A stretch of DNA of 64,000 bases from Alphaproteobacteria bacterium (GCA_041396705.1 JAWKYB010000012.1:933-64932), one strand, 5' to 3'. Positions 420 to 12,700 are shown, counted from the stretch's first letter. The notes: a model not told the origin generated them from the sequence alone. Numbers and translations are program-made.

Positions 420-1187
420 ATGCTCACGGAGGCCATAACGATTCCGAAGGATCTGCCCTTGGATCGTTTGGAGGGCCTGCTCGAGCGAAGATTCGAGGAC
501 CTCGGGTGTAACCGCTTCGCCTTCGTGGCGGTCCGCCCGCCGGCGGGAAGGCGCCAGGACTATCTGTCCAATTTTCCCCGCGAGTTCAGCGCACATTATC
601 TCAAGGAAGACCTGAAGAACTGCGACCCGACATTCCGGCTCGCCTTCGAATCGCTCAATCCGCTGCTTTGGCGCGATATCGTCGACCATGTCGAGGAGCG
701 CGAGCAGCGGGTCTTCCGCGATTCGAGCGAGTTCGGCATCAAGCGCGGCATGACCATCCCGATCCATGGTCCGTATCGTGTGATGTCGACGCTCAGCGTC
801 TCCAGCGACCTGCCGGACCGCGAGTTCGACCGTCTGCTGCCGACCATCGTCCCGCAGCTCGAACACCTCGGCAAGGCGATCCACCTGCATCTGCTCGAAC
901 GTCAGGACTTCGGACCGGCCGCACCGCCGCCAAGGCTGACGGAGCGCGAGCGCGACGTGCTGGCGTGGACGTCCGCCGGCAAATCCTGTTGGGAAATCAG
1001 TCAGATATTATCGCTTTCAGAGAAAACGGTAGAGCAACAGCTGGCGAGCGCGCGATCGCGACTGGGCGTCTACAAGACGGTCCATGCCGTGATCAAGGCC
1101 TATATGCTGGGGCTGATCGAGCCCGATCGCTTCGAGCCCAGCGAGGATTCCAGTCAGCTCTGGACCCGGCTCAAACCGCTAGACTAA
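420..1187 (+). CDS. LuxR-family transcriptional regulator (autoinducer-binding domain + LuxR HTH)
   Basis: C-terminal LuxR-type HTH (LTERERDVLAWTSAGKSCWEISQILSLSEKTVEQQLASARSRLGV). N-terminal region is typical of an AHL-binding domain. Sits directly upstream of and co-oriented with a luxI homologue. Confidence 0.9.
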   Translation: MLTEAITIPKDLPLDRLEGLLERRFEDLGCNRFAFVAVRPPAGRRQDYLSNFPREFSAHYLKEDLKNCDPTFRLAFESLNPLLWRDIVDHVEEREQRVFRDSSEFGIKRGMTIPIHGPYRVMSTLSVSSDLPDREFDRLLPTIVPQLEHLGKAIHLHLLERQDFGPAAPPPRLTERERDVLAWTSAGKSCWEISQILSLSEKTVEQQLASARSRLGVYKTVHAVIKAYMLGLIEPDRFEPSEDSSQLWTRLKPLD

Positions 1188-1196
1188 CGAGGAATT

Positions 1197-1216
1197 CACC
1201 TATCTTGCAATAGGGA
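1197..1216. promoter_or_regulatory. lux-box-like imperfect palindrome upstream of luxI homologue
   Basis: ACCTATCTTGCAATAGGGAA (CCTAT..ATAGG arms around a TTGCAA core), about 70 nt upstream of the GTG start at 1286. A GGAAGGAGG RBS lies at 1271-1279. Confidence 0.3.
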
Positions 1217-1285
1217 ACTCCCCGGATAGCGCCAGCCCGGCGCCGGCGCTTCCATCCTGGTCAAAACCAGGAAGGAGGCGATCAG

Positions 1286-1924
1286 GTGATCAGGGTGCTG
1301 ACGCCGTACGACTATCAGGCCTACGGCGACCTGATGCAGCAGATGTTCGAGCTGCGTTATCGTGTGTTCTACGAGCGTATGGGATGGGATGTCACGGTCG
1401 ACAACGGCCGCGAGATCGATCGCTATGACTCGCTGAGCCCGTATTATTTCCTGGCGCTCGACGATTCCGAGCGCGTCATCGGGACCTGGCGGCTGTTGCC
1501 GACCACCGGTCCCTACATGCTGCCCGACATCTTCTCGGTGCTGATGGACGGCGAGCCGGTGCCGCGCTCGGCGCGCATCTGGGAATGCAGCCGCTTTGCC
1601 ATCGAGGACGACGGCAACGGCGAGCATTCGGCGCAGCAGATCCATCGCATCACCGGCGAGTTGTTCTGCGGGCTGATCGAATACTGCCTCGAGATGGGCA
1701 TCGACGAGGTGGTCACGGTCTACGATCTGCGGATCGCCCGGCTGCTGCCCCGGATCGGTTGCCAGCCGGTCTGGAAAACCGCGATCAAGCGCATCGGCGT
1801 CACCGCCGCGCTGGCAGGTCGCTTCCTGATCAACCACCAGGTCCTCGACGCCTGCCGGCGGCGAAACGAGATCGTCGGCTCGGTGCTCGTCCGCGACGAC
1901 GTGCCGGCCATTGCAGCGGAGTAA
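1286..1924 (+). CDS. acyl-homoserine-lactone synthase, LuxI family
   Basis: 212 aa. Conserved LuxI blocks RYRVFYERMGWDV and WECSRFAI. GTG start with a strong RBS. Paired with the luxR homologue. Confidence 0.9.
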   Translation: MIRVLTPYDYQAYGDLMQQMFELRYRVFYERMGWDVTVDNGREIDRYDSLSPYYFLALDDSERVIGTWRLLPTTGPYMLPDIFSVLMDGEPVPRSARIWECSRFAIEDDGNGEHSAQQIHRITGELFCGLIEYCLEMGIDEVVTVYDLRIARLLPRIGCQPVWKTAIKRIGVTAALAGRFLINHQVLDACRRRNEIVGSVLVRDDVPAIAAE

Positions 1925-1930
1925 AGCATT

Positions 1931-2254
1931 ATGGACGCAAGGAATTTCGACAATCCGTTGAACGGGCTTATTGCGGACGACAAGGCGCCGTCGAAGGAGG
2001 CCGCGGCGGTTCAGCATTGCCTGGTCTATCTCTCGGGCGAGCTGCGCAAGCTCGGCCTGAGCCAGGCCGCGAAGCTGCTGGACGACGCCGTGCGCTCGGT
2101 CAGCGATGCACAGCGCTTCTGCGAGTTCGAGCGCGAGTACCACCTCGACGCGATGTCCGCCCGCCACCGCCCCCGGGATGCAGGCCAGAAGCGCGGGGCG
2201 GCCGACCGCGGCGACGAGCTGCACGGCACCGCCTACATGATTCCGGGAGAATAG
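1931..2254 (+). CDS. hypothetical protein (107 aa) wedged between luxI and P450
   Basis: ORF with high GC3. Lies 6 nt after the luxI stop and 4 nt before the P450 start, i.e. operon-like spacing. No family recognised. Confidence 0.4.
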   Translation: MDARNFDNPLNGLIADDKAPSKEAAAVQHCLVYLSGELRKLGLSQAAKLLDDAVRSVSDAQRFCEFEREYHLDAMSARHRPRDAGQKRGAADRGDELHGTAYMIPGE

Positions 2255-2258
2255 CGTC

Positions 2259-3755
2259 ATGGCCGATACCACCGTCGGCGACGTCGGCAACGGCCTGGCC
2301 GGTCTTGCCGAGGCGGCCGCGCCGGCCAGTCCGCCGTTCGAGCGCGGCCACTGGCTGCTCGGCGTGCTGCCGCAGATGCGGGCCGACCCGCTGGCATTCT
2401 TCGCGCGGCTGGCCAACCGACACGGGCCGGCCGTCGGGCTGAGCCTGGCCGGGCACAAGGCGCTGATGCTCAACGATCCCGCCGCGCTGCGCCACGTGTT
2501 CCAGGACAACTGGCAGAATTACCGCAAGTCCAAATTCTACGGCCCGCTGAAGCCCATGCTCGGCGGCGGCATCTTCATGGTCGAGGGCGAGCGCTGGCTG
2601 CGCCAGCGGCGCGTCGCCAACCCGGCCTTTCAGGGCTGCAAGATGCCGGCCCTGCTGGGCGCGATGGTGGCGGCCACCGGCGAGATGCTGGACCGCTGGT
2701 CGGGCCGGGCCGGTGCCGACCCGCAGACGGAATCGGCCGGGAGCGCGGCCGCCGGTGGTTGGGCCGGTGGTCCGTTCCCGGCCCGTGCCTGGGCCGGCGA
2801 CTTGGCGCCGGAGATGACGCGGGTGACGCTCGACATCATCCTGCGTTCGCTGCTCGGCTATCGCATGGACGGCGAGTATGCGGCGCTGTACGAGGCGCTG
2901 GCGACGCTGCTGGCCGACGCCGAGAAGCGGGCGTGGTCGTTCGTCTCGCTGCCGCCGTGGGTTCCGACCCCGCACAACCGGGCCTGCGCCAGGGCGCACG
3001 CGGTCATCGCCGAGCTGGTGGAAAAGGTGATCGCCGAGCGGCGCCAGTCCGGCGTCCCGCAGGACGACCTGCTCGACGCCTTCATCGCGGCCTATTCCGA
3101 CCCGAAGGCCGGCGGGTTCCAGCCGTCGATCCTGGTCGACGAGGTGCGGTCGTTCATCCTGGCCGGCCACGAGACCACGGCGAACGCCATGTGCTGGGTG
3201 TGGCTGGAGCTGAGCCGCAACCCGGCGGTGCGCGAGCAGGTGCTGGCGGAGATCGACCGCGAGCTCGGCGGCTCCGCGCCGACGCTGGAAAGCGTGCAGC
3301 GGCTGAAATACTGCCGCGCGGTGCTCGACGAGACGCTGCGGGTGCATCCGACGGTGTGGACCCTGTCGCGGCAGGCCAACGCGGCGGAGCGGATCCCGCT
3401 CAGCGACGGCCGCAGCCTGGCGGTGGCCAAGGACCAGACGGTCATCCTGTGCCCCTATGCGGTGCATCACCGCACCGCACTGTGGGGCGATCCGGAACGG
3501 TTCCGGCCGGAGCGCTTCCTGGAGCCGCGCCACGACCAGTTCGCCTATTTCCCCTTTGCCAAGGGGCCGCGCCACTGCCTCGGCTCGCGTTTCGCCATCT
3601 TCGAGGCGCTGATCATCATGGCGATGACGCTGCAGCGGTTCGACGTGACCGTCGACGACCCGTCGTCGGTTCAGGCCGCGCCGATGATTACCCTGCGTCC
3701 GGACGGGCCTGTTCGCGCACATGTCACCCCCCGACAGGTGCGCCAGGCGGCTTAA
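2259..3755 (+). CDS. cytochrome P450
   Basis: 498 aa. Heme-binding loop FPFAKGPRHCLGSRFAIFEA. ExxR motif (ETLRVHP). AGHETTAN I-helix. Contains a Gly/Ala-rich low-complexity insertion near residues 145-185. Confidence 0.9.
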   Translation: MADTTVGDVGNGLAGLAEAAAPASPPFERGHWLLGVLPQMRADPLAFFARLANRHGPAVGLSLAGHKALMLNDPAALRHVFQDNWQNYRKSKFYGPLKPMLGGGIFMVEGERWLRQRRVANPAFQGCKMPALLGAMVAATGEMLDRWSGRAGADPQTESAGSAAAGGWAGGPFPARAWAGDLAPEMTRVTLDIILRSLLGYRMDGEYAALYEALATLLADAEKRAWSFVSLPPWVPTPHNRACARAHAVIAELVEKVIAERRQSGVPQDDLLDAFIAAYSDPKAGGFQPSILVDEVRSFILAGHETTANAMCWVWLELSRNPAVREQVLAEIDRELGGSAPTLESVQRLKYCRAVLDETLRVHPTVWTLSRQANAAERIPLSDGRSLAVAKDQTVILCPYAVHHRTALWGDPERFRPERFLEPRHDQFAYFPFAKGPRHCLGSRFAIFEALIIMAMTLQRFDVTVDDPSSVQAAPMITLRPDGPVRAHVTPRQVRQAA

Positions 3756-3831
3756 GCCACCGGATGCAGGCTCAGCCGGCCGGCCCCTCGCAAGGGGGCC
3801 GGCCGGTCGCTTGCATGGCCGCGGGCCGGCG

Positions 3832-4170
3832 TCAGACCGGCTCGCCGGCGACCTGCAGCATCATGGTTTCCCAGTGCTCGCCGGCGCCGACCAGGCACGT
3901 CGGTCCGTCGGGTGTGGTCAGCAGAATGGTCCAGGTGCCGTCGGGCGAGCTGAACACCTCGTAGACGGCGCCGGTGTTCGACAGTCCGATCGCGGTGCGT
4001 TCCTCGTGCCAGCTGTCCGACAAAGTCGAGACGATGCCGTCGCGTTCGCCGCACAGCATCTGCTGCGCGGATGCCGGAGCGGCCGACACGACGGCTGCGC
4101 CGGCGAAGGCGAAGGCGGCCGCGGCCGCGCGGAACGGATTGAATGGGCTGGCGTTCGACGTGGTGCGCAT
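3832..4170 (-). CDS. small secreted hypothetical protein (112 aa, N-terminal signal peptide)
   Basis: ATG at 4170. MRTTSNASPFNPFRAAAAAFAFAGAAVVSAAPASAQQ is a signal peptide followed by a compact domain. The 1059-aa minus-strand ORF it sits inside is otherwise the antisense of the antiporter gene. Confidence 0.5.
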   Translation of the reverse strand: MRTTSNASPFNPFRAAAAAFAFAGAAVVSAAPASAQQMLCGERDGIVSTLSDSWHEERTAIGLSNTGAVYEVFSSPDGTWTILLTTPDGPTCLVGAGEHWETMMLQVAGEPV

Positions 4171-4491: not shown

Positions 4492-7005
4492 ATGCCTGAG
4501 GTCGCATTTCTGGTCATTGCCGTGGCGCTGCTGCTGTTGCTGGTGGCGGTGCTGCAGCCGCTGGCCGAACAGCTGGCCGTGCCGCACACGGTGCTGCTGG
4601 CGGTGTTCGGGCTGGCCCTGGGCTCGGTCATCGTGCTCGGCGTCGCCTGGTCGCCGGACGGGTTCGGCGGCACGCTGCTGCACGCGTTGAGCGGCATCGC
4701 GTTGCCGTCCGACGCACTGACCTATCTGTTCCTGCCGACACTGCTGTTCGAGGTGGCGCTGGCGCTGAACGTGCGCCGGCTGCTCGACGATTTCTGGGCG
4801 ATCTTCGTACTCGCCGTGGTCGCCGTCGTTGTGACCACGCTGGCCATCGGCTTCGGCCTGGGCATGGCCTTCGACCTGGCCTTGTCGGTGTGCCTGCTGA
4901 TCGGCGCGATCGTCGCCACGACCGACCCGTCGGCGGTGGTCGGCCTGTTCCGCGATGTCGGTGCGCCGCGCCGGCTCGGCATCCTGATCGAGGGCGAAAG
5001 CCTGCTCAACGACGCCGCCGCCATCGCGCTCTATGCCATATTCTTCAACCTGACGCTCTACCTCGGCGCGGCGGACTGGGGCGACGTCACCTTCATGTTC
5101 AGCGTCGACCTGGCCGGCGGCCTGGTCGTCGGCGTGGCCTGTGCCTGGGTGGCGTGCCTGATCCTGCCGCATCTCCATGGCATGCGCTATGCCGAGGTCA
5201 CGGTCACGCTGGCGCTGGCCTATCTGGCCTATGCCGTCGCCGAGGCCGTGATCGGCGTTTCGGGGGTGGTCTCTGTGGTCGCGGCCGGGCTGTTCGTCGG
5301 CTCCTGGGGGCGCACGCGCATGACGCCGGAAAGCTGGCCGGTCATGCTCGACGTCTGGAGCCAGGTCGCCTACTGGGCCAGCGGCCTGGTGTTCCTGCTG
5401 GCGGCGATGGCGATGCCGCGGCTGGTCAGCACGATCGGCTGGGCCGAGGTCGCCATGCTGGCGGTGATGGTGGCGACGGCCTTCGCCGCGCGCTGGGCGG
5501 TGCTGGCGGTGTCGTTCCCGCTGATCGCACGCTTCCGCATGGGCCAGCGGCTGTCGCGCGGCTTCATGATCGCGATCTGGTGGGGCGGCGTGCGCGGCGC
5601 GCTGACGCTGGCGCTGGCCCTGGCGGTGACCGAGCACCCGGAGATCGACGCGGAGACGCGGCGGCTGGTCGCGACGCTTGCCACCGGCTTCGTGCTGTTC
5701 ACCCTGTTCGTCAACGCCACCACGCTGCCGGCGATGATCCGCTGGCTGGGGCTGACCAGGCTCAGCCGGGCGGACCGGCTGGTGCGGGCCCGTGCGATCG
5801 ATCTTGCCCTCGACAAGGTGCAGGACGACCTGCGCGAGATCGCGCGGCGCTACGGCGTCGAGCCGGCGATCACCAGCGCGGTGTGCGCCGTTTTCGACGG
5901 CCGCCGCACCCAGCTGGAGGGGGAGGCGGAGACCGTCGCCGGCCTGCCGCTCGACGACCGCGTCTATATCGGGCTGACCGCGCTCGCCGCGCAGGAGCGG
6001 CAGGTCTACGAGGACCTGTTCGCCCAGCGCATCGTGTCGCGGCACACCAACCGCGCCCTGCTTGCCTTCGCCGGCCGGCTGGCCGACGCGGTCAAGGCCG
6101 CCCGGCTCGACGGCTACGAGGCGGCGGTGGACCGCTCGCTGCGCTTCTCGCCGGCGATGCGGATCGCGATCTGGATCAACCGGCGCCTGCATGTCGAGCG
6201 GATGCTGTCGCGCGTGCTGGCCGATCGATACGAGACGCTGCTGGCGATGCGGGTGGCGGTGCGCGAGCTGGCCGCCTTCGCCCGCGGGCGGCTGACCGGC
6301 ATGACCGGCGCCGAGGCGCAGGCTGTACTCGACCGCACCCTGCAGGCGCGGATGCTGCGCATCGCCACCGGCCTGCAGGCGCTGGAGCTGCAGTATCCCG
6401 ACTATGCGATGGCGCTGAAGACGGTGCAGATGAACCGGATCGCCATGCGCATGGAAGATGCCGCCTATCGCGCGCTGCTCGACGACGCCATGATCGGCCA
6501 CGAGGTCCACACCACCCTGATGCGCGACTGGCGTTCGCGCTGGGCGCGGGCCGAACGTCGCCCGCGGCTCGACGTGTCGGCGCCGGTCGAGGAGCTGATC
6601 ACACGGGTGCCGCTGTTCGCCGATCTCGACCCGGCGCAGCGGCGGGGGCTGGCGGCCCTGCTGCGCAAGCGGCTGATCATGCCCGGCGAGCGTATCGTCA
6701 CCGCCGGCGAGCGCGGCGACGCCATGTTCTTTCTGCTGTCCGGCGCCGTCGAGGTCAGCGGCGGGGATGCCGCGACCACACGCCTCGGCTCCGGCGAGTT
6801 CTTCGGCGAGATCGCACTGGTGTTCAATCGCCCGCGCACCGCCGACGTCACCGCGCTCGGCTATTGCGAGGTGCTGGTGCTGCGCAGCCGCGACTTCTCC
6901 GCTTTCCTCGGCACCCAGCCGGAGTTGCGCGAGCATGTGTTCGAGGTGGCCCGCCGCCGCCTGGAGCAGAATCTGGGCATGGAAGAACAGGCCGCTGGCG
7001 CTTGA
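4492..7005 (+). CDS. Na+/H+ (cation:proton) antiporter, CPA1 family, with C-terminal cyclic-nucleotide-binding domain
   Basis: 837 aa. About 12 TM helices, N-terminal, typical of NhaP/CPA1. C-terminal cNMP-binding fold (GERIVTAGERGDAMFFLLSGAVEV...FGEIALVFNRPRTADV). Confidence 0.85.
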   Translation: MPEVAFLVIAVALLLLLVAVLQPLAEQLAVPHTVLLAVFGLALGSVIVLGVAWSPDGFGGTLLHALSGIALPSDALTYLFLPTLLFEVALALNVRRLLDDFWAIFVLAVVAVVVTTLAIGFGLGMAFDLALSVCLLIGAIVATTDPSAVVGLFRDVGAPRRLGILIEGESLLNDAAAIALYAIFFNLTLYLGAADWGDVTFMFSVDLAGGLVVGVACAWVACLILPHLHGMRYAEVTVTLALAYLAYAVAEAVIGVSGVVSVVAAGLFVGSWGRTRMTPESWPVMLDVWSQVAYWASGLVFLLAAMAMPRLVSTIGWAEVAMLAVMVATAFAARWAVLAVSFPLIARFRMGQRLSRGFMIAIWWGGVRGALTLALALAVTEHPEIDAETRRLVATLATGFVLFTLFVNATTLPAMIRWLGLTRLSRADRLVRARAIDLALDKVQDDLREIARRYGVEPAITSAVCAVFDGRRTQLEGEAETVAGLPLDDRVYIGLTALAAQERQVYEDLFAQRIVSRHTNRALLAFAGRLADAVKAARLDGYEAAVDRSLRFSPAMRIAIWINRRLHVERMLSRVLADRYETLLAMRVAVRELAAFARGRLTGMTGAEAQAVLDRTLQARMLRIATGLQALELQYPDYAMALKTVQMNRIAMRMEDAAYRALLDDAMIGHEVHTTLMRDWRSRWARAERRPRLDVSAPVEELITRVPLFADLDPAQRRGLAALLRKRLIMPGERIVTAGERGDAMFFLLSGAVEVSGGDAATTRLGSGEFFGEIALVFNRPRTADVTALGYCEVLVLRSRDFSAFLGTQPELREHVFEVARRRLEQNLGMEEQAAGA

Positions 7006-7653: not shown

Positions 7654-9708
7654 TCACGGCTGCTGCTGGGTCTCGACGAAGACGTAGCCGTATTGCGACC
7701 GGAAGTCGGGCGTCAGCGCCCGGCGCTGCAGTTCCTCTTCCAGCGCGGCGAGATAGCCTTCGGCCAGTTCCACGCGCGGGCGCGGCGGCGACAGGTCGAA
7801 CAGCGGTGCGCTGGTCGACAGCGTGACCACCATGCCGGTACCGTAGGGCGGGCCGGCCGGCACCGCGATCGAGCCCGGCTCGGCCGCGCTGATCGGAATG
7901 GTGGTGGCCGCCGCCGGGTAGTAGTTGGCCGGCGTCGGGTTCAGCTCGCTCGGCAGCAGGTGGACCACCTCGCCGTTCGGCTTGAAGAAGTCGATGTAGA
8001 CGTGGGCGGGGTAGTCCGGCGTCTCGACATAGACCTCGAGATACTGCGCTTCCGCGAAGGCCGCCCGGCCGCCCTGGATCATCCCGAACAGCGGGTCGGG
8101 CCGCAGTTCGGGCGGCAGGTGGTCCATCGGTTCGGCGTCGGGGGCGATCTCGGCGCCGGCGCCGGCATAGACACCGAGCCCGCTGCAGAGGCCGTCGCCG
8201 ACGACCACGACATTGTCGTCGGCGACGCCGGCGATGCCGTTGATCTCCGAAAGCCGCTGGCGCACTTCGGCCTGCTCGTCGCTGGACGTCATGAAGCCGC
8301 GCACGGCGACGCTGCCGTCGACGGTCACGTCGGCGTCGAGATGGCCGCAACTGATCTCGGCCAGGATGGCGGCAATCGCGCTTTCGGGCCCTTCCGGCCG
8401 GCCGGTCTGCACGGCGGCGAGCGCATCCTCGATCCGCGGGTCGTAGCGCGGCGGCGCGATCGGCTGCACCCATTCGACCGGGCCCGGCGGCGGGACGAAC
8501 TGCTCCGGCGGCGGCGGCTCGTCCAGCGCCGGCGGCTCCGGCGTAGCCGGCTCAGGCGGCAGTGCGATCGCCAGCGGCGCCTCCGGCTGCGTCTCGGTCG
8601 CGGCCTCGTCGGGCGTCGGCGCCGCCGGAACCGGCGAGGCCTCGGGCACGGCGGGCGCCGGGGCCAGGCTGCGCACGAAGGGTTGCGGCGGCTCCAGCGA
8701 CGCCAGCTGGGTGCCGGGCAGCGCAACCGGCTCCAGTGCGGCCGGCTCGGGTGCCGCCGGAGCCGGCGGGGCGACCAGGGCGGGAACCGGCGGGGCCGGC
8801 GTCGTTTGCTGCGCCGGCACGGCGGCGACGGGCTCGACGAATGCCGGCAGGGCCGGCGCCGGCACGGCGTCCGCCTGGGCGTCGACAGCGGCCGTCGGCG
8901 CGGCCGGTGCGTCGATCGGCGGCAGCGGCTGCAGCGGCGTCGGCGCGGCCTGGGCCGGCGGTGGGGACTCGGCGACGACTGGCACGTCGTCGACCGCCGC
9001 CGGCGGCGTTTCGAACGGCTCGATGCCGCGCGGTCGCTCGATCTGCTCCGGCAGGCCGTCGGACCGTTCCGGCAGGTCCAGTGCGGCCAGCTGCTGTGGC
9101 GGGGCGGCCGCAGGCGTTTCGATCGGCGGCACCGGCTGCGGGTCGTCGGGCAGCGGCTGCGGCGCCTCGGTCAGCTCCGGCGGCGGTTCCTCCAGCTCAT
9201 CGGGCACCGCTTCCGGCGCCGCGTCGGGCGGCGGCGCGTCGTCCGTCGGCGCGCGTTCGGCGAGCTCTTGCGGCGGGGCATAGCTGCGCCCGGCCATCGG
9301 GCCGCTGTCCAGGCCGCGGGTGTCGAGCACGATCTCGATGCCGGCGACGTCGCCGCCGCCCTGCAGCACCGCGCCGGCCGCCACCAGGGCCCCGCCGGCC
9401 AGCAGCACGCTGTGGAACGCGACCGAAGCGGTGAGCGCGAGCCGGAGCCGCCGTGCCTCGCGCGTGCGCGCGGGCGGCAGCCGCAGCAGCGGGCCGCCGA
9501 ACAGCGCATGCCAGATCGCCGCCGGCAGGGATTGCTCGTGCTGTGGGGACCGGGTCGTCACGCTTCTTCCATGGCCAAGGACGGCGGGCGCGAGGCCGCG
9601 CCAACCGGTGCATACACGATGCACGCTGGCTTCGAAATACGGCAGGAGTGCGGAGGTTCCGCGCCGCGAGCGGCCCGCGGGCTTGCTTTGTCGCACCGCT
9701 TGGCCCAC
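7654..9708 (-). CDS. proline/alanine-rich membrane-anchored protein with C-terminal BON-like and DUF4384-like regions
   Basis: Single TM (LALTASVAFHSVLLAGGALVAAGAVL), then about 350 aa of PxP/AP-rich low complexity, then a structured C-terminus (VTVDGSVAVRGFM...; YIDFFKPNGEVVHLLP). Start uncertain; the first about 70 aa of the ORF may not be translated. Confidence 0.55.
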   Translation of the reverse strand: MGQAVRQSKPAGRSRRGTSALLPYFEASVHRVCTGWRGLAPAVLGHGRSVTTRSPQHEQSLPAAIWHALFGGPLLRLPPARTREARRLRLALTASVAFHSVLLAGGALVAAGAVLQGGGDVAGIEIVLDTRGLDSGPMAGRSYAPPQELAERAPTDDAPPPDAAPEAVPDELEEPPPELTEAPQPLPDDPQPVPPIETPAAAPPQQLAALDLPERSDGLPEQIERPRGIEPFETPPAAVDDVPVVAESPPPAQAAPTPLQPLPPIDAPAAPTAAVDAQADAVPAPALPAFVEPVAAVPAQQTTPAPPVPALVAPPAPAAPEPAALEPVALPGTQLASLEPPQPFVRSLAPAPAVPEASPVPAAPTPDEAATETQPEAPLAIALPPEPATPEPPALDEPPPPEQFVPPPGPVEWVQPIAPPRYDPRIEDALAAVQTGRPEGPESAIAAILAEISCGHLDADVTVDGSVAVRGFMTSSDEQAEVRQRLSEINGIAGVADDNVVVVGDGLCSGLGVYAGAGAEIAPDAEPMDHLPPELRPDPLFGMIQGGRAAFAEAQYLEVYVETPDYPAHVYIDFFKPNGEVVHLLPSELNPTPANYYPAAATTIPISAAEPGSIAVPAGPPYGTGMVVTLSTSAPLFDLSPPRPRVELAEGYLAALEEELQRRALTPDFRSQYGYVFVETQQQP

Positions 9709-9797
9709 CTTCCCGGCGCCGGTGACGGGCCCGATGGCGCGCCGATTGCAGCGTGCGAACGGGGCCGAACCGCTGACTGCGACCCCGGGGGAAAGCC

Positions 9798-12700
9798 ATG
9801 TCCAAGGCTGCAGCGCGCCAGCAAGCGCCGACGACCGTTGCCGACCGAGGGTCGGACGAGGAGCTGCCGGCCCGGCTGCTGGCGATCGCGGAGGCGGGCG
9901 CGCCCGGCGGTGAGCTGCCGTCCGCCGCGGGCGCCTTCGGGCGAGCCGCGCCGGCCGAAAGCCTGGTGCTGCGGCGCCAGCTGGAGGACCTGCTCGACGG
10001 CTTCCGCATGGCGGCCGAGGCGGACCCCTACGGCAACCCGATCCAGCGGCTTGCGCTGGAGATCACCCGCATGCTGGAGCGCGGCCAGATCGGGCTCGCC
10101 CTCGTCGACGGGCTGGTCCAGCTGCTGTGTGCCGAGGCCTTCGCCGTCCGCGCCGAGCGCCTTGCCGGCTATCTCGGCAACCGCGACCCGGAGCGCAACG
10201 ATGCCGCGTTGCGCGACCTGATCCGCCGCGCCGCCCTGGAAAAGGGGACCGGCGACCAGCCGATCAAGGCGCCGTTCACCAGCTTCAAGCGGCGCATGGA
10301 GGCGGCGCCGTTCGGCGTGGTCTTCACGGCCCACCCGACCTTCTCGCTGGCCGAGCCGCTGCTGGTCTGCCTTGCCGAGCTCGGTGCCGGCGTCGGGGCC
10401 GACGGCCGCCGGCTCGACGACGGGGCGGTCGACAACCGCCTGCGCCAGCTGCTGGCCGCCGACCACCGGCCGGAACCCTCGATCGACCTTGCGCTGGAAC
10501 ACCGGTTGTCGCTGGTCGCGATCGCCAATGCCCGGTCCGCGCTGCAGCGGGTCTATCGCATCGTGTTCGAGGTTGCCGCCGAGCTCTATCCCGACAACTG
10601 GCGCCAGTTGCGGCCGCGCCTGGTGACCCTGGCCAGCTGGGTCGGCTACGACCTGGACGGACGCTCGGACATCCAGTGGTTCCACACCTTCAAGAAGCGG
10701 CTGCTGGTGCAGATCCGCCAGCTCGAACACTACTCCGCCTCCGCCCGCCAACTGATCGAGGCCCATGCCCGGGCGCCGCGCGACGAGGATCTGCGCCGGA
10801 CGCTGGAGCTGTTCGACACCCGCATCGCCCTGACCCTGCGCCACGCCCGCGACGAGCAGGCGGCGTTCGACGCCATCGCCGGGCGCGACGACGCCGATCT
10901 GGTGCGCGGCATCGCGCAGCGGATGTACGCCGAGCGCGGCGAGCGGCTGATCGAGGTCGGCGCGCTGATCGACCTGGTCGACCGGGCGGTCGGCCTGACC
11001 CGCGCCGCGGACGGCGTCGCCGCGCTGTGCGTGCTGCGGGCGGAGATCGCCAATTTCGGGCTGAGCATGGCCGAGACCCACGTCCGGCTGAACGCCAGCC
11101 AGCTGCACAACGCCATCCGCAAGGCGGTCGGGATGGAAAGCCCGCCGGACGACCCGACCAGCCGCAACACCTATCTGGCCGCCGTCAACGCGATGATCGA
11201 CACCGTCGAGCCGGTGACCATCAACTTCGGCTCGGTGATGGCGGAGCGCGCCTCGGCCAAGCGGCTGTTCATGATCGTCACCCAGATGCTGAAATACATC
11301 GACCGCACCAACCCGGTGCGCTTCCTGATCGCGGAGTGCGAGACGCCGTTCACCGTGCTGGCGGCGCTGTACTACGCCAAGCTGTTCGGCATCGAGCAAT
11401 CGATCGACATCTCGCCGCTGTTCGAGACCGAGGCGGCGCTGGAGCGCGGTCACGAGATCGTCGAGGAACTGCTCGCCCAGCCGCACTATGTCGACTATGT
11501 GCGGCAGCGTGGCCGGCTGTGCATCCAGACCGGCTTTTCCGATGCCGGCCGCTATCTGGGCCAGACCGCGGCATCGGTGGCGATCGAGCGCCTGCAGGGG
11601 CGGGTCGGCGCCACCATGGCCGCACATGGCCTGTCGGATGTCGAGCTGCTGATCTTCAACACCCACGGCGAGTCGATCGGCCGCGGCGGCCATCCCGCCA
11701 GCTTCGAGGACCGGTTGGACTATGTCTGCAGCCCGCATGTGCGCGAGGCGCTGGCTGAGGCCGGCATCGCGCTGAAGCAGGAGGTCAGCTTCCAGGGCGG
11801 CGACGGCTATCTCTACTACGTGACCCCGGCGATCGCCTTCACCTCGCTGTGCCGGGTGATCGAGCATGTGCTCGGTCCGCTGCCGGCGAGCGAGGGGCTG
11901 GGCGACCCGTTCTATGCGGCGCAGGCCCACATGCAGGAGTTCTTCACCGCGGTGGAGCGCTTCAACGCCGAGATCATGGACGATCCGGATTATGCAGCGT
12001 TGCTGGGGGTTTACGGGCCGAACCTGCTGTACAGCACCGGCAGTCGCGCGGTGCGGCGGCAGCACGACTTCGGCGACGATGCCGCGAGCCTGCATCCGTC
12101 GCAGATCCGCGCGATCCCGCACAATGCGATCCTGCAGCAGATGGGCTTCCTGGCCAACACGCTGGGCGGGCTCGGCCGGGCGATCCGGCGCGATCCGGGC
12201 CAGTTCCGCGCGCTCTATGCGGATTCGGCGCGGTTCCGTCGGTTGATCGGCATGATCGAATATGCCCGCGCCTTTTCCAGCCTGGATGCGCTTAAGGCCT
12301 ATATCGACACGGTCGACCCCGGGCTGTGGCTGCTGCTGGCGGCGCACGAGACCGACCGCGATCGCCGCATCGCCGCCCGCGCGGTCGCGACGCACCTGGA
12401 GCGCAGCCGTACCCACGAGCGGTTGGTCCGCATCTACCGCAAGCTCAGCCGCGACTGCGCCGACCTGGACGACGCCCTGGCCGACCTGCGCGCGGACGTG
12501 GTGCCGGCGGGCCATGCGCTGGGAGAGGCGGAGCGGCGCGGCAACCTGGAGCTGCTGCACGCGCTGCGCGTCGCGCTGGTCCAGCAGCTCTGCCGGCTGG
12601 CCGTGCACATTCCCGACTTCAGCGCCCAGCATGGCACCACGCCCGAGGCGCTGGTCGCCCAGATCCTGCATCTCGACGTGGAGCACGCGGTCGATCAGCT

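Follow-up and report, generated by a model that had tools for sequence, protein, structure and literature searches.

What is a cytochrome P450 doing behind the gene for a quorum-sensing signal synthase? The question is raised by a locus in a 64,000-nucleotide (nt) stretch of alphaproteobacterial DNA (GCA_041396705.1, JAWKYB010000012.1:933-64932), which is called the window below. Four open reading frames (ORFs) lie there on one strand: luxR, luxI, a small ORF (orf107) and a P450 gene. An earlier note on this DNA had reported them, with gaps of 6 nt between luxI and orf107 (1925-1930) and 4 nt between orf107 and the P450 gene (2255-2258), and had suggested that the P450 could act on the acyl-homoserine lactone (AHL) signal; the coordinates and both gaps proved to be exactly as it gave them. 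We found that luxI, a small ORF and a P450 gene follow one another in this order in about 21 distinct loci (duplicates collapsed), which supports the view that the P450 is inherited together with this LuxI clade and dedicated to it, as judged from gene order and sequence comparison. The four genes are:

420-1187, plus strand: luxR, LuxR-type AHL receptor and transcription factor, 255 amino acids (aa), with Autoind_bind and GerE domains
1286-1924, plus strand: luxI, acyl-homoserine-lactone synthase, LasI/TraI-like, 212 aa, GTG start, with an Autoind_synth domain
1931-2254, plus strand: orf107, 107 aa, founding member of an unannotated small-protein family, recognized by its coding pattern of guanine plus cytosine (GC) and by conservation
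2259-3755, plus strand: cytochrome P450, 498 aa, soluble E-class enzyme without a fused reductase, PF00067

The window LuxI is identical to a protein of a metagenome-assembled genome labeled "Alphaproteobacteria bacterium" at NCBI. The contigs of its relatives at 83, 77, 74, 57, 52, 47, and 45% identity carried luxR - luxI - small ORF (57-96 aa) - P450 in seven of seven cases, and the two sampled relatives at 43% and 40% identity had no P450. Across the loci with the full order, LuxI is 39-84% and the P450 35-77% identical to the window protein. The carriers are about twenty uncultured alphaproteobacteria and one cultured strain, Ferruginivarius sediminum WD2A32 (Rhodovibrionaceae, Rhodospirillales), in which the order is transposase - luxR - luxR - luxI - small ORF - P450 - P-type ATPase. 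On its contig NZ_QPMH01000009.1 (locus L013), luxI spans about 7841-8482, the small ORF about 8472-8702 and the P450 gene about 8704-10068. The flanks are wholly different among loci (SRPBCC proteins, TetR/GST, GntR/GlnA, EamA, a response regulator, or a major facilitator superfamily protein together with an acyl-coenzyme A (CoA) ligase). Even where an insertion sequence (IS) element has entered between luxR and luxI (loci L029 and L030), luxI, the small ORF and the P450 gene are still contiguous. Because the arrangement recurs in so many distinct loci with different flanks, the adjacency of luxI and the P450 gene goes far beyond what chance would give and, on these gene orders, is not fortuitous.

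The same linkage was seen from the side of the P450. When one genome per species was scanned, 11 loci came up with P450s 35-75% identical to that of the window, and luxI lay immediately upstream of the P450 gene in all 11. Metagenome P450s of at least 35% identity were preceded by luxI, the small ORF or both in all cases where the contig was long enough. Both scans used subfamily-specific peptide patterns. Beyond this range, five P450s at 32-34% identity (L040-42, L044, L046) had neither luxI nor the small ORF in the 2.1-3.5 kb upstream, and the same was true of a Skermanella plasmid P450 at 32% identity. Within the module, the small ORF stands between luxI and the P450 gene in about 19 of the 21 versions. 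The distance from luxI to the small ORF ranges from -38 to +57 nt and that from the small ORF to the P450 gene from -7 to +76 nt (18 loci), with overlapping stop and start codons at several junctions. Loci L016 and L048, which represent one lineage of an organism with 43-44% GC, miss the small ORF, and here luxI and the P450 gene overlap by 8 nt at their stop and start. Over 13 distant loci, pairs that diverge more in LuxI also diverge more in the P450 (Mantel r = 0.81, reached by 0 of 2000 permutations), which reflects co-inheritance of the two genes.

The earlier note had taken the close spacing to imply a luxI-orf-P450 operon, and the genes do behave as one: tight or overlapping junctions are kept across loci, and the sole intergenic terminator-like hairpin lies 3' of the P450 gene. 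We looked for an independent promoter or terminator between luxI and the P450 gene, and a consensus scan found neither promoter-like nor terminator-like sites from luxI to the P450 stop codon. The luxI/orf107 and orf107/P450 junctions are both unstructured. The hairpin directly 3' of the P450 stop has a perfect 12-bp GC stem and a 7-nt loop, with a folding free energy (ΔG) of -36 kcal/mol, and is the lowest-energy intergenic structure within 1180-3860; it has no T-tract and was therefore missed by the consensus terminator scan. We infer that luxI, the small ORF and the P450 gene are probably transcribed as a single, LuxR-activated unit. The other features of the module and of its downstream border are:

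1199-1229, strand not applicable: candidate LuxR operator, consisting of the dyad CCTAT-N6-ATAGG (1199-1214) and a conserved block (1207-1229)
1247-1280, plus strand: luxI leader hairpin pairing the Shine-Dalgarno sequence, arms CGCTTCCATCCTGGT and ACCAGGAAGGAGGCG
2738-2781, plus strand: GC-rich palindromic stretch at a 16-aa insertion in the P450, AGGWAGGPFPARAWAG
3776-3806, strand not applicable: terminator-like hairpin at the operon end, between the P450 gene and a convergent ORF
4170-3832, minus strand: small secreted ORF, convergent to the P450 gene

The P450 matches PF00067 with an E-value of 1.6e-77 (262 bits) and has a complete set of catalytic motifs (FAKGPRHCLG, AGHETT in the I-helix, ETLR, and PERF), including the intact heme loop FPFAKGPRHCLGSRF that the earlier note had pointed out. 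In a profile search the closest solved structures were 7WZL (272 bits), which is deposited only as "putative cytochrome P450", and 3DBG (247 bits), which we take to be the terpene oxidase CYP170A1, followed by CYP97 carotenoid hydroxylases (about 239 bits) and CYP102 BM3 (about 213 bits; CYP102A1 scored about 130 bits against the window P450 when a single sequence was used in place of the profile). The characterized relatives all oxidize lipophilic chains or rings, so that an acyl-chain substrate would be compatible with this ancestry, not proven by it. The protein consists of the P450 domain only and its gene ends at 3755, and it thus lacks the fused diflavin reductase that makes CYP102-type enzymes self-sufficient. 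The genomic contexts of outgroup P450s were also considered as a guide to the substrate and gave no pointer. The window P450 contains the in-frame insertion of 16 aa noted above, which is missing from all four aligned orthologues. The DNA spanning it folds as a hairpin of -36.1 kcal/mol, as stable as the hairpin behind the gene. Each of these two structures is unique in the window, which excludes that they are copies of a repeated element.

The receptor gene of the locus encodes a LuxR-type protein with both expected domains (Autoind_bind, PF03472, 7.7e-25; GerE, PF00196, 1.1e-13), and among solved structures it comes nearest to LasR (85 bits) and QscR (79 bits). In most LuxRs of the module, the residues that contact the head group of the signal are the full canonical set (LasR Y56, W60, Y64, D73, W88, and S/N129), and the ligand is therefore expected to be an AHL with a normal homoserine-lactone head group. 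At the positions aligned to LasR Y56, W60, Y64, D73, W88, and S129, the window LuxR has F, F, Y, D, W, and S. The W60F exchange is common to the window LuxR, its four closest relatives and L016, and the window protein has Y56F in addition; this loss of hydrogen-bond donors to the head group could alter ligand recognition in the sub-clade of the window.

Most loci, and the more distant ones clearly so, have a lux-box-type palindrome of 16-20 bp about 70-90 nt upstream of luxI, for example ACCTCCCAATCCTGGGAGGT, ACCTCCCAAGGTTGGGAGTT, and ACCTGTCAATTCTGACAGCT, and the P450 would consequently be produced along with the signal. The window equivalent is a weaker dyad, CCTATCTTGCAATAGG (1199-1214, CCTAT-N6-ATAGG), which precedes the start of luxI by about 72-87 nt. 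This pattern has a single match in the 64-kb window, yet at least one match occurred in 14 of 100 shuffled sequences, so that it is weak evidence alone. The block GCAATAGGG... (1207-1229), which overlaps the dyad, is invariant in the four closest loci. Translation of luxI starts at a GTG codon with GGAGG 8 nt upstream, and this Shine-Dalgarno sequence is paired in the leader hairpin at 1247-1280 (15-nt arms, 87% complementarity). The luxI region from -45 to +3 folds with a ΔG of -29 kcal/mol (z = -5.7 against shuffled sequences). Equivalent stems that differ in sequence and pair the Shine-Dalgarno sequence are present in 13-14 of 19 loci, including L001, L005, L006, L007, L010, L013-L015, L018, L021, and L026, and a search of Rfam with the leader hairpin returned no family match. 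The hairpin may serve as a translational gate or stabilize the 5' end of the mRNA. Because L026 has no P450, the stem is a feature of the LuxI clade and not of the P450 module.

These observations suggest a self-contained quorum-sensing module of four genes, composed of luxR and a LuxR-activated operon for LuxI, the small protein and the P450. LuxI would make an AHL whose head group is normal. The P450, a member of the lipid-, terpenoid- and carotenoid-oxidizing CYP102/CYP97/CYP170-like group, would be translated along with it, draw on housekeeping redox partners and oxidize the acyl chain of the AHL or of its precursor bound to acyl carrier protein (ACP), with distal hydroxylation, as catalyzed by CYP102A1 on AHLs, as the likeliest reaction. 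An oxidized AHL would then be what the module emits and senses, and the small helical-hairpin protein would be neither an enzyme nor a redox partner. Oxidation of the acyl chain by the P450, with the oxidized AHL as the emitted and sensed signal, is the reading we favor, and we hold it with our confidence evenly divided for and against. We favor it because a whole P450 subfamily is linked exclusively, tightly and independently of context to one LuxI clade. No other biosynthetic gene is conserved near the module, which narrows the substrate to the LuxI product, the precursor of this product or some general metabolite of the cell.

Two known enzymes offer parallels. CYP102A1 (P450 BM3 of Bacillus megaterium) hydroxylates AHLs at the omega-1 to omega-3 positions, according to Chowdhary et al. 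(2007) as relayed in PMC3355433. Like the window P450 it belongs to the broad E-class group; it differs in being fused to its reductase, in being unlinked to any AHL synthase, and in quenching foreign signals in a Gram-positive host that produces no AHL, whereas the window P450 is a stand-alone enzyme genetically tied to a synthase. BioI (CYP107H1) of biotin synthesis is a bacterial P450 that acts on a fatty acyl chain carried by ACP, and it is thus a parallel for the variant in which the precursor is oxidized. BioI belongs to another P450 class and family, cleaves a C-C bond rather than tailoring a signal, and has no link to quorum sensing.

In a more far-reaching version, the P450 would be the first dedicated AHL tailoring enzyme to act after the synthase, a distally oxidized AHL (hydroxy, epoxy or further oxidized) would be the true cognate ligand of LuxR and form a new AHL class in a Rhodospirillales-like clade, and the small hairpin protein would found a new family of signal-coupled regulators. 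We put this forward tentatively and think it rather more likely to fail in some part than to hold in full.

Several points weigh against a P450 acting on the signal. The case for it comes from genomic comparison. The correlated divergence of LuxI and P450 is expected for any co-inherited neighbors and is alone no proof of a functional interaction, and the statement that the P450 is always linked covers only P450s with the motifs on which the scans were based. CYP97 and 3DBG score above CYP102, so homology alone does not point to acyl chains. No ferredoxin or reductase gene lies next to the module in any locus examined, and housekeeping redox partners would therefore be required. The module LuxRs often have polar or basic residues at tail-pocket positions; a P450-less relative has polar residues there as well, and the pocket hence gives no clear sign of an oxidized tail. 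Finally, the studied genes that are co-transcribed 3' of AHL synthases (cinS, mmaP, and BCAM1871) are outputs or regulators of the circuit and not tailoring enzymes.

The arguments from homology, receptor pocket and precedent also speak for the strongest rival, in which the P450 is a quorum-sensing output that is made at high cell density and oxidizes another lipophile (a membrane lipid, hopanoid, terpenoid, carotenoid or xenobiotic); given what cinS, mmaP, and BCAM1871 do, the P450 could likewise be an output. An enzyme that acts on a general metabolite can, however, be controlled in trans and should sometimes be found away from luxI, and this subfamily is adjacent to luxI in every assessable case over its whole identity range (35-77%) and in many genomic contexts. 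Nor is any gene for the pathway of an alternative substrate conserved nearby, and in one lineage the stop codon of luxI overlaps the start codon of the P450 gene. We judge the output explanation unlikely on balance, with a weight that is far from negligible.

A P450 acting on the signal might also serve its turnover, by oxidizing the AHL of its own module to a less active form and so providing negative feedback or homeostasis. AHL oxidized by CYP102A1 is indeed less active in bioassay (PMC3355433). All arguments from linkage and co-expression for an action on the AHL hold equally for turnover. To encode a synthase on a single transcript with its own antagonist, and so to fix their ratio, would, on the other hand, be wasteful, typical biosynthetic operons pair a scaffold enzyme with tailoring enzymes, and we know of no AHL-degrading enzyme encoded inside a synthase operon. 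Built-in turnover is in our view improbable.

The type of synthase bears on another proposal, in which a CoA-dependent LuxI is supplied by the P450 with an unusual aryl or branched acid that it makes or tailors. The earlier note had likened LuxI to the CoA-utilizing RpaI/BjaI/BraI type, and this did not stand when we placed the protein among CoA- and ACP-dependent synthases by similarity scores and a distance tree. The window LuxI clearly belongs to the family (Autoind_synth, PF00765, 2.6e-43, 148 bits against a Pfam gathering cut-off of 24), as do RpaI, BjaI, and BraI. Among solved structures it scored highest with the ACP-type synthase LasI (112 bits), followed by TofI (72), BjaI (70), 6WNS (66), RpaI (60), and EsaI (34), which leaves no ground for CoA dependence. 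Its best NCBIfam match is TraI with 152 bits, a score below the curated cut-offs of 250 and 292 (NF052393 and NF010408) and hence outside the equivalog. The motif that had been cited for the CoA type, LLPTTGPYML...WECSRF, is common to LasI (ILDTTGPYML...WELSRF). The distance tree, which has no bootstrap values and includes some partial sequences, groups most P450-linked LuxIs in one clade with the sampled P450-less relatives as sister group; the window LuxI branches close to LasI, which is itself placed near the base, and L037 and L045 fall outside the main P450-linked clade. LuxI is thus LasI/TraI-like and presumably acyl-ACP-dependent, and the scenario of an unusual acid precursor with an aryl- or branched-acyl product loses its basis. 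CoA-type synthases do take unusual acids and the chemistry would be reasonable, but with LuxI nearer to LasI and TraI and with an acyl-CoA ligase that is not conserved in the module (one lies downstream in L029 only) we regard this proposal as very improbable.

LasI, LasR, and TraI are the best-scoring characterized relatives of the module proteins. The LasR/LasI and TraR/TraI systems share with the module a receptor with Autoind_bind and GerE domains, a LuxI-type synthase and a lux-box-like dyad 5' of the synthase gene; they differ in that their loci have neither a P450 nor a member of the orf107 family.

The small ORF is a real gene, because its codons show a coding-type GC pattern and it is conserved in other genomes. 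The GC contents of the first, second and third codon positions (GC1, GC2 and GC3) are 0.71, 0.44, and 0.86 in this 70% GC genome, against a GC3 of 0.51 in an overlapping frame of 285 aa. A profile of close homologues retrieved only 13 clusters among 5.8 billion proteins, and a broader profile to which distant module copies had been added retrieved 62, all of 57-130 aa, "hypothetical" and without a Pfam domain. The family shares the core motif C-[LI]-x-Y-L-x-x-E-A ... A-H-[LF]-I-G-x-A-A-E. AlphaFold2 predicts an antiparallel two-helix hairpin for orf107 (helices 21-40 and 44-78) with floppy tails, and the 10-residue block means of the predicted local distance difference test (pLDDT) are 94-98 over residues 31-60. 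Long spurious ORFs are common at such a GC content, but that the small ORF is no gene and the adjacency fortuitous is practically out of the question with the same order in all those loci, the coding GC of orf107, a motif kept across 62 clusters and a confidently predicted helical core.

Searches of Pfam, NCBIfam, and PDB with orf107 gave no match, none of the 62 clusters contains a named relative, and no plasmid-borne relatives were found. Fold searches with the model returned generic hairpin matches only, as a helical hairpin is too generic to inform. A ferredoxin would need a conserved cluster of three or four Cys ligands and can be excluded: only one position has a Cys that is widely kept, and at least four members have Ala there (L017, L022, P0173, and P0174). 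A TraM/QslA-like anti-activator had no support from sequence or fold, with the same limit of a too generic hairpin on the fold searches. The small ORF is also not strictly tied to the P450: the lineage of L016 and L048 keeps luxI-P450 without it, and L028 has two paralogous orphan copies (1082-1354 and 2039-2290) about 0.7 kb apart with no luxI, luxR or P450 gene within 7 kb. The small ORFs that follow the P450-less luxI of L026 matched the orf107 family only marginally (5 bits).

This separability fits a regulator that binds a protein better than an obligate enzyme subunit. Two small proteins of similar position are known from other alphaproteobacteria: CinS, encoded in the cinIS operon of Rhizobium leguminosarum, inactivates the repressor PraR (PMC4149787), and MmaP of Methylobacterium fujisawaense, a protein of 59 aa that is co-transcribed with mmaI, binds PraR (PMC10790750). 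The likeness lies in position and size: a domain-less small ORF (57-107 aa here) directly 3' of luxI, with spacing of the co-transcription type, in an alphaproteobacterium. In contrast to both, the small ORF is here followed by a P450 gene. By this analogy, the small protein is most likely a protein-binding adaptor or regulator made in step with the signal. The placement of this family (62 clusters) like CinS and MmaP hints that a synthase plus a small adaptor may be a more general arrangement in Alphaproteobacteria.

To our knowledge, the diversity of AHLs is at present ascribed almost wholly to the choice of acyl-ACP or acyl-CoA by LuxI, and the only enzymes known to modify a finished AHL are quenchers from other organisms. 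What is new here is that a LuxR/LuxI circuit has gained a dedicated P450 and a member of a new small-protein family. We found no description of a luxI-linked P450 locus in the open-access papers and bioRxiv preprints searched, in agreement with the earlier note, which had called such signal chemistry undescribed. The nearest report is that of Doberva et al. (PMC5479921), who described poly-hydroxylated long-chain AHLs from a marine alphaproteobacterium and, with no genetic link, offered a P450 as a speculative source. If the P450 indeed acts on the signal, its locking to the synthase across a clade would amount to a second, tailoring layer of signal biosynthesis. Such a P450 could be the enzyme still missing for the poly-hydroxylated AHLs of marine Alphaproteobacteria, and its modification would keep the signal private, as it may go unrecognized by ordinary LuxR receptors. 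The compact four-gene module is present in a cultured strain, which makes these predictions directly testable.

Some further observations concern the surroundings of the module. Signs of mobility are the DDE transposase of the IS element in L029 (2817-4157) and L030 (2811-4157) and the transposase adjoining the F. sediminum module (L013, 1786-3159). The P450 of L030 (5235-6508) is called in two pieces of 284 and 103 aa and is intact with 424 aa in the near-identical L029, which indicates either a pseudogene or an assembly error. In the closest sub-clade (L001-L004) a fatty-acid desaturase gene lies immediately downstream of the P450 gene and convergent to it (about 8473-9660 in L001). Desaturases have also been invoked for unusual AHL tails (PMC5479921); the gene is missing from the window and from distant loci, and its presence may be incidental.

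In the window itself (1-2000), a further sign of mobility is the lower GC content of luxR and luxI, 0.62-0.64 (luxR GC3 0.78), against 0.71-0.73 (GC3 0.91-0.93) in neighboring genes. Divergent from luxR is a domain-less ORF on the minus strand (2-277), which is cut by the window start; domain-less ORFs of 180-220 aa occupy the equivalent position in L001 (4359-5021), L005 (4019-4660), and L006 (4309-4851). In these three loci two SRPBCC (Polyketide_cyc2) genes precede this ORF, a neighborhood that is missing from distant module loci. Downstream of the module, 4492-7005 encodes an 837-aa Na+/H+ exchanger fused to a C-terminal cyclic-nucleotide-binding domain, apparently unrelated to the module. 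Further on, the minus strand has an ORF of 684 aa (7654-9708) whose central region is of low complexity and rich in Pro and Ala, in a stretch with a GC content of 78-81%.

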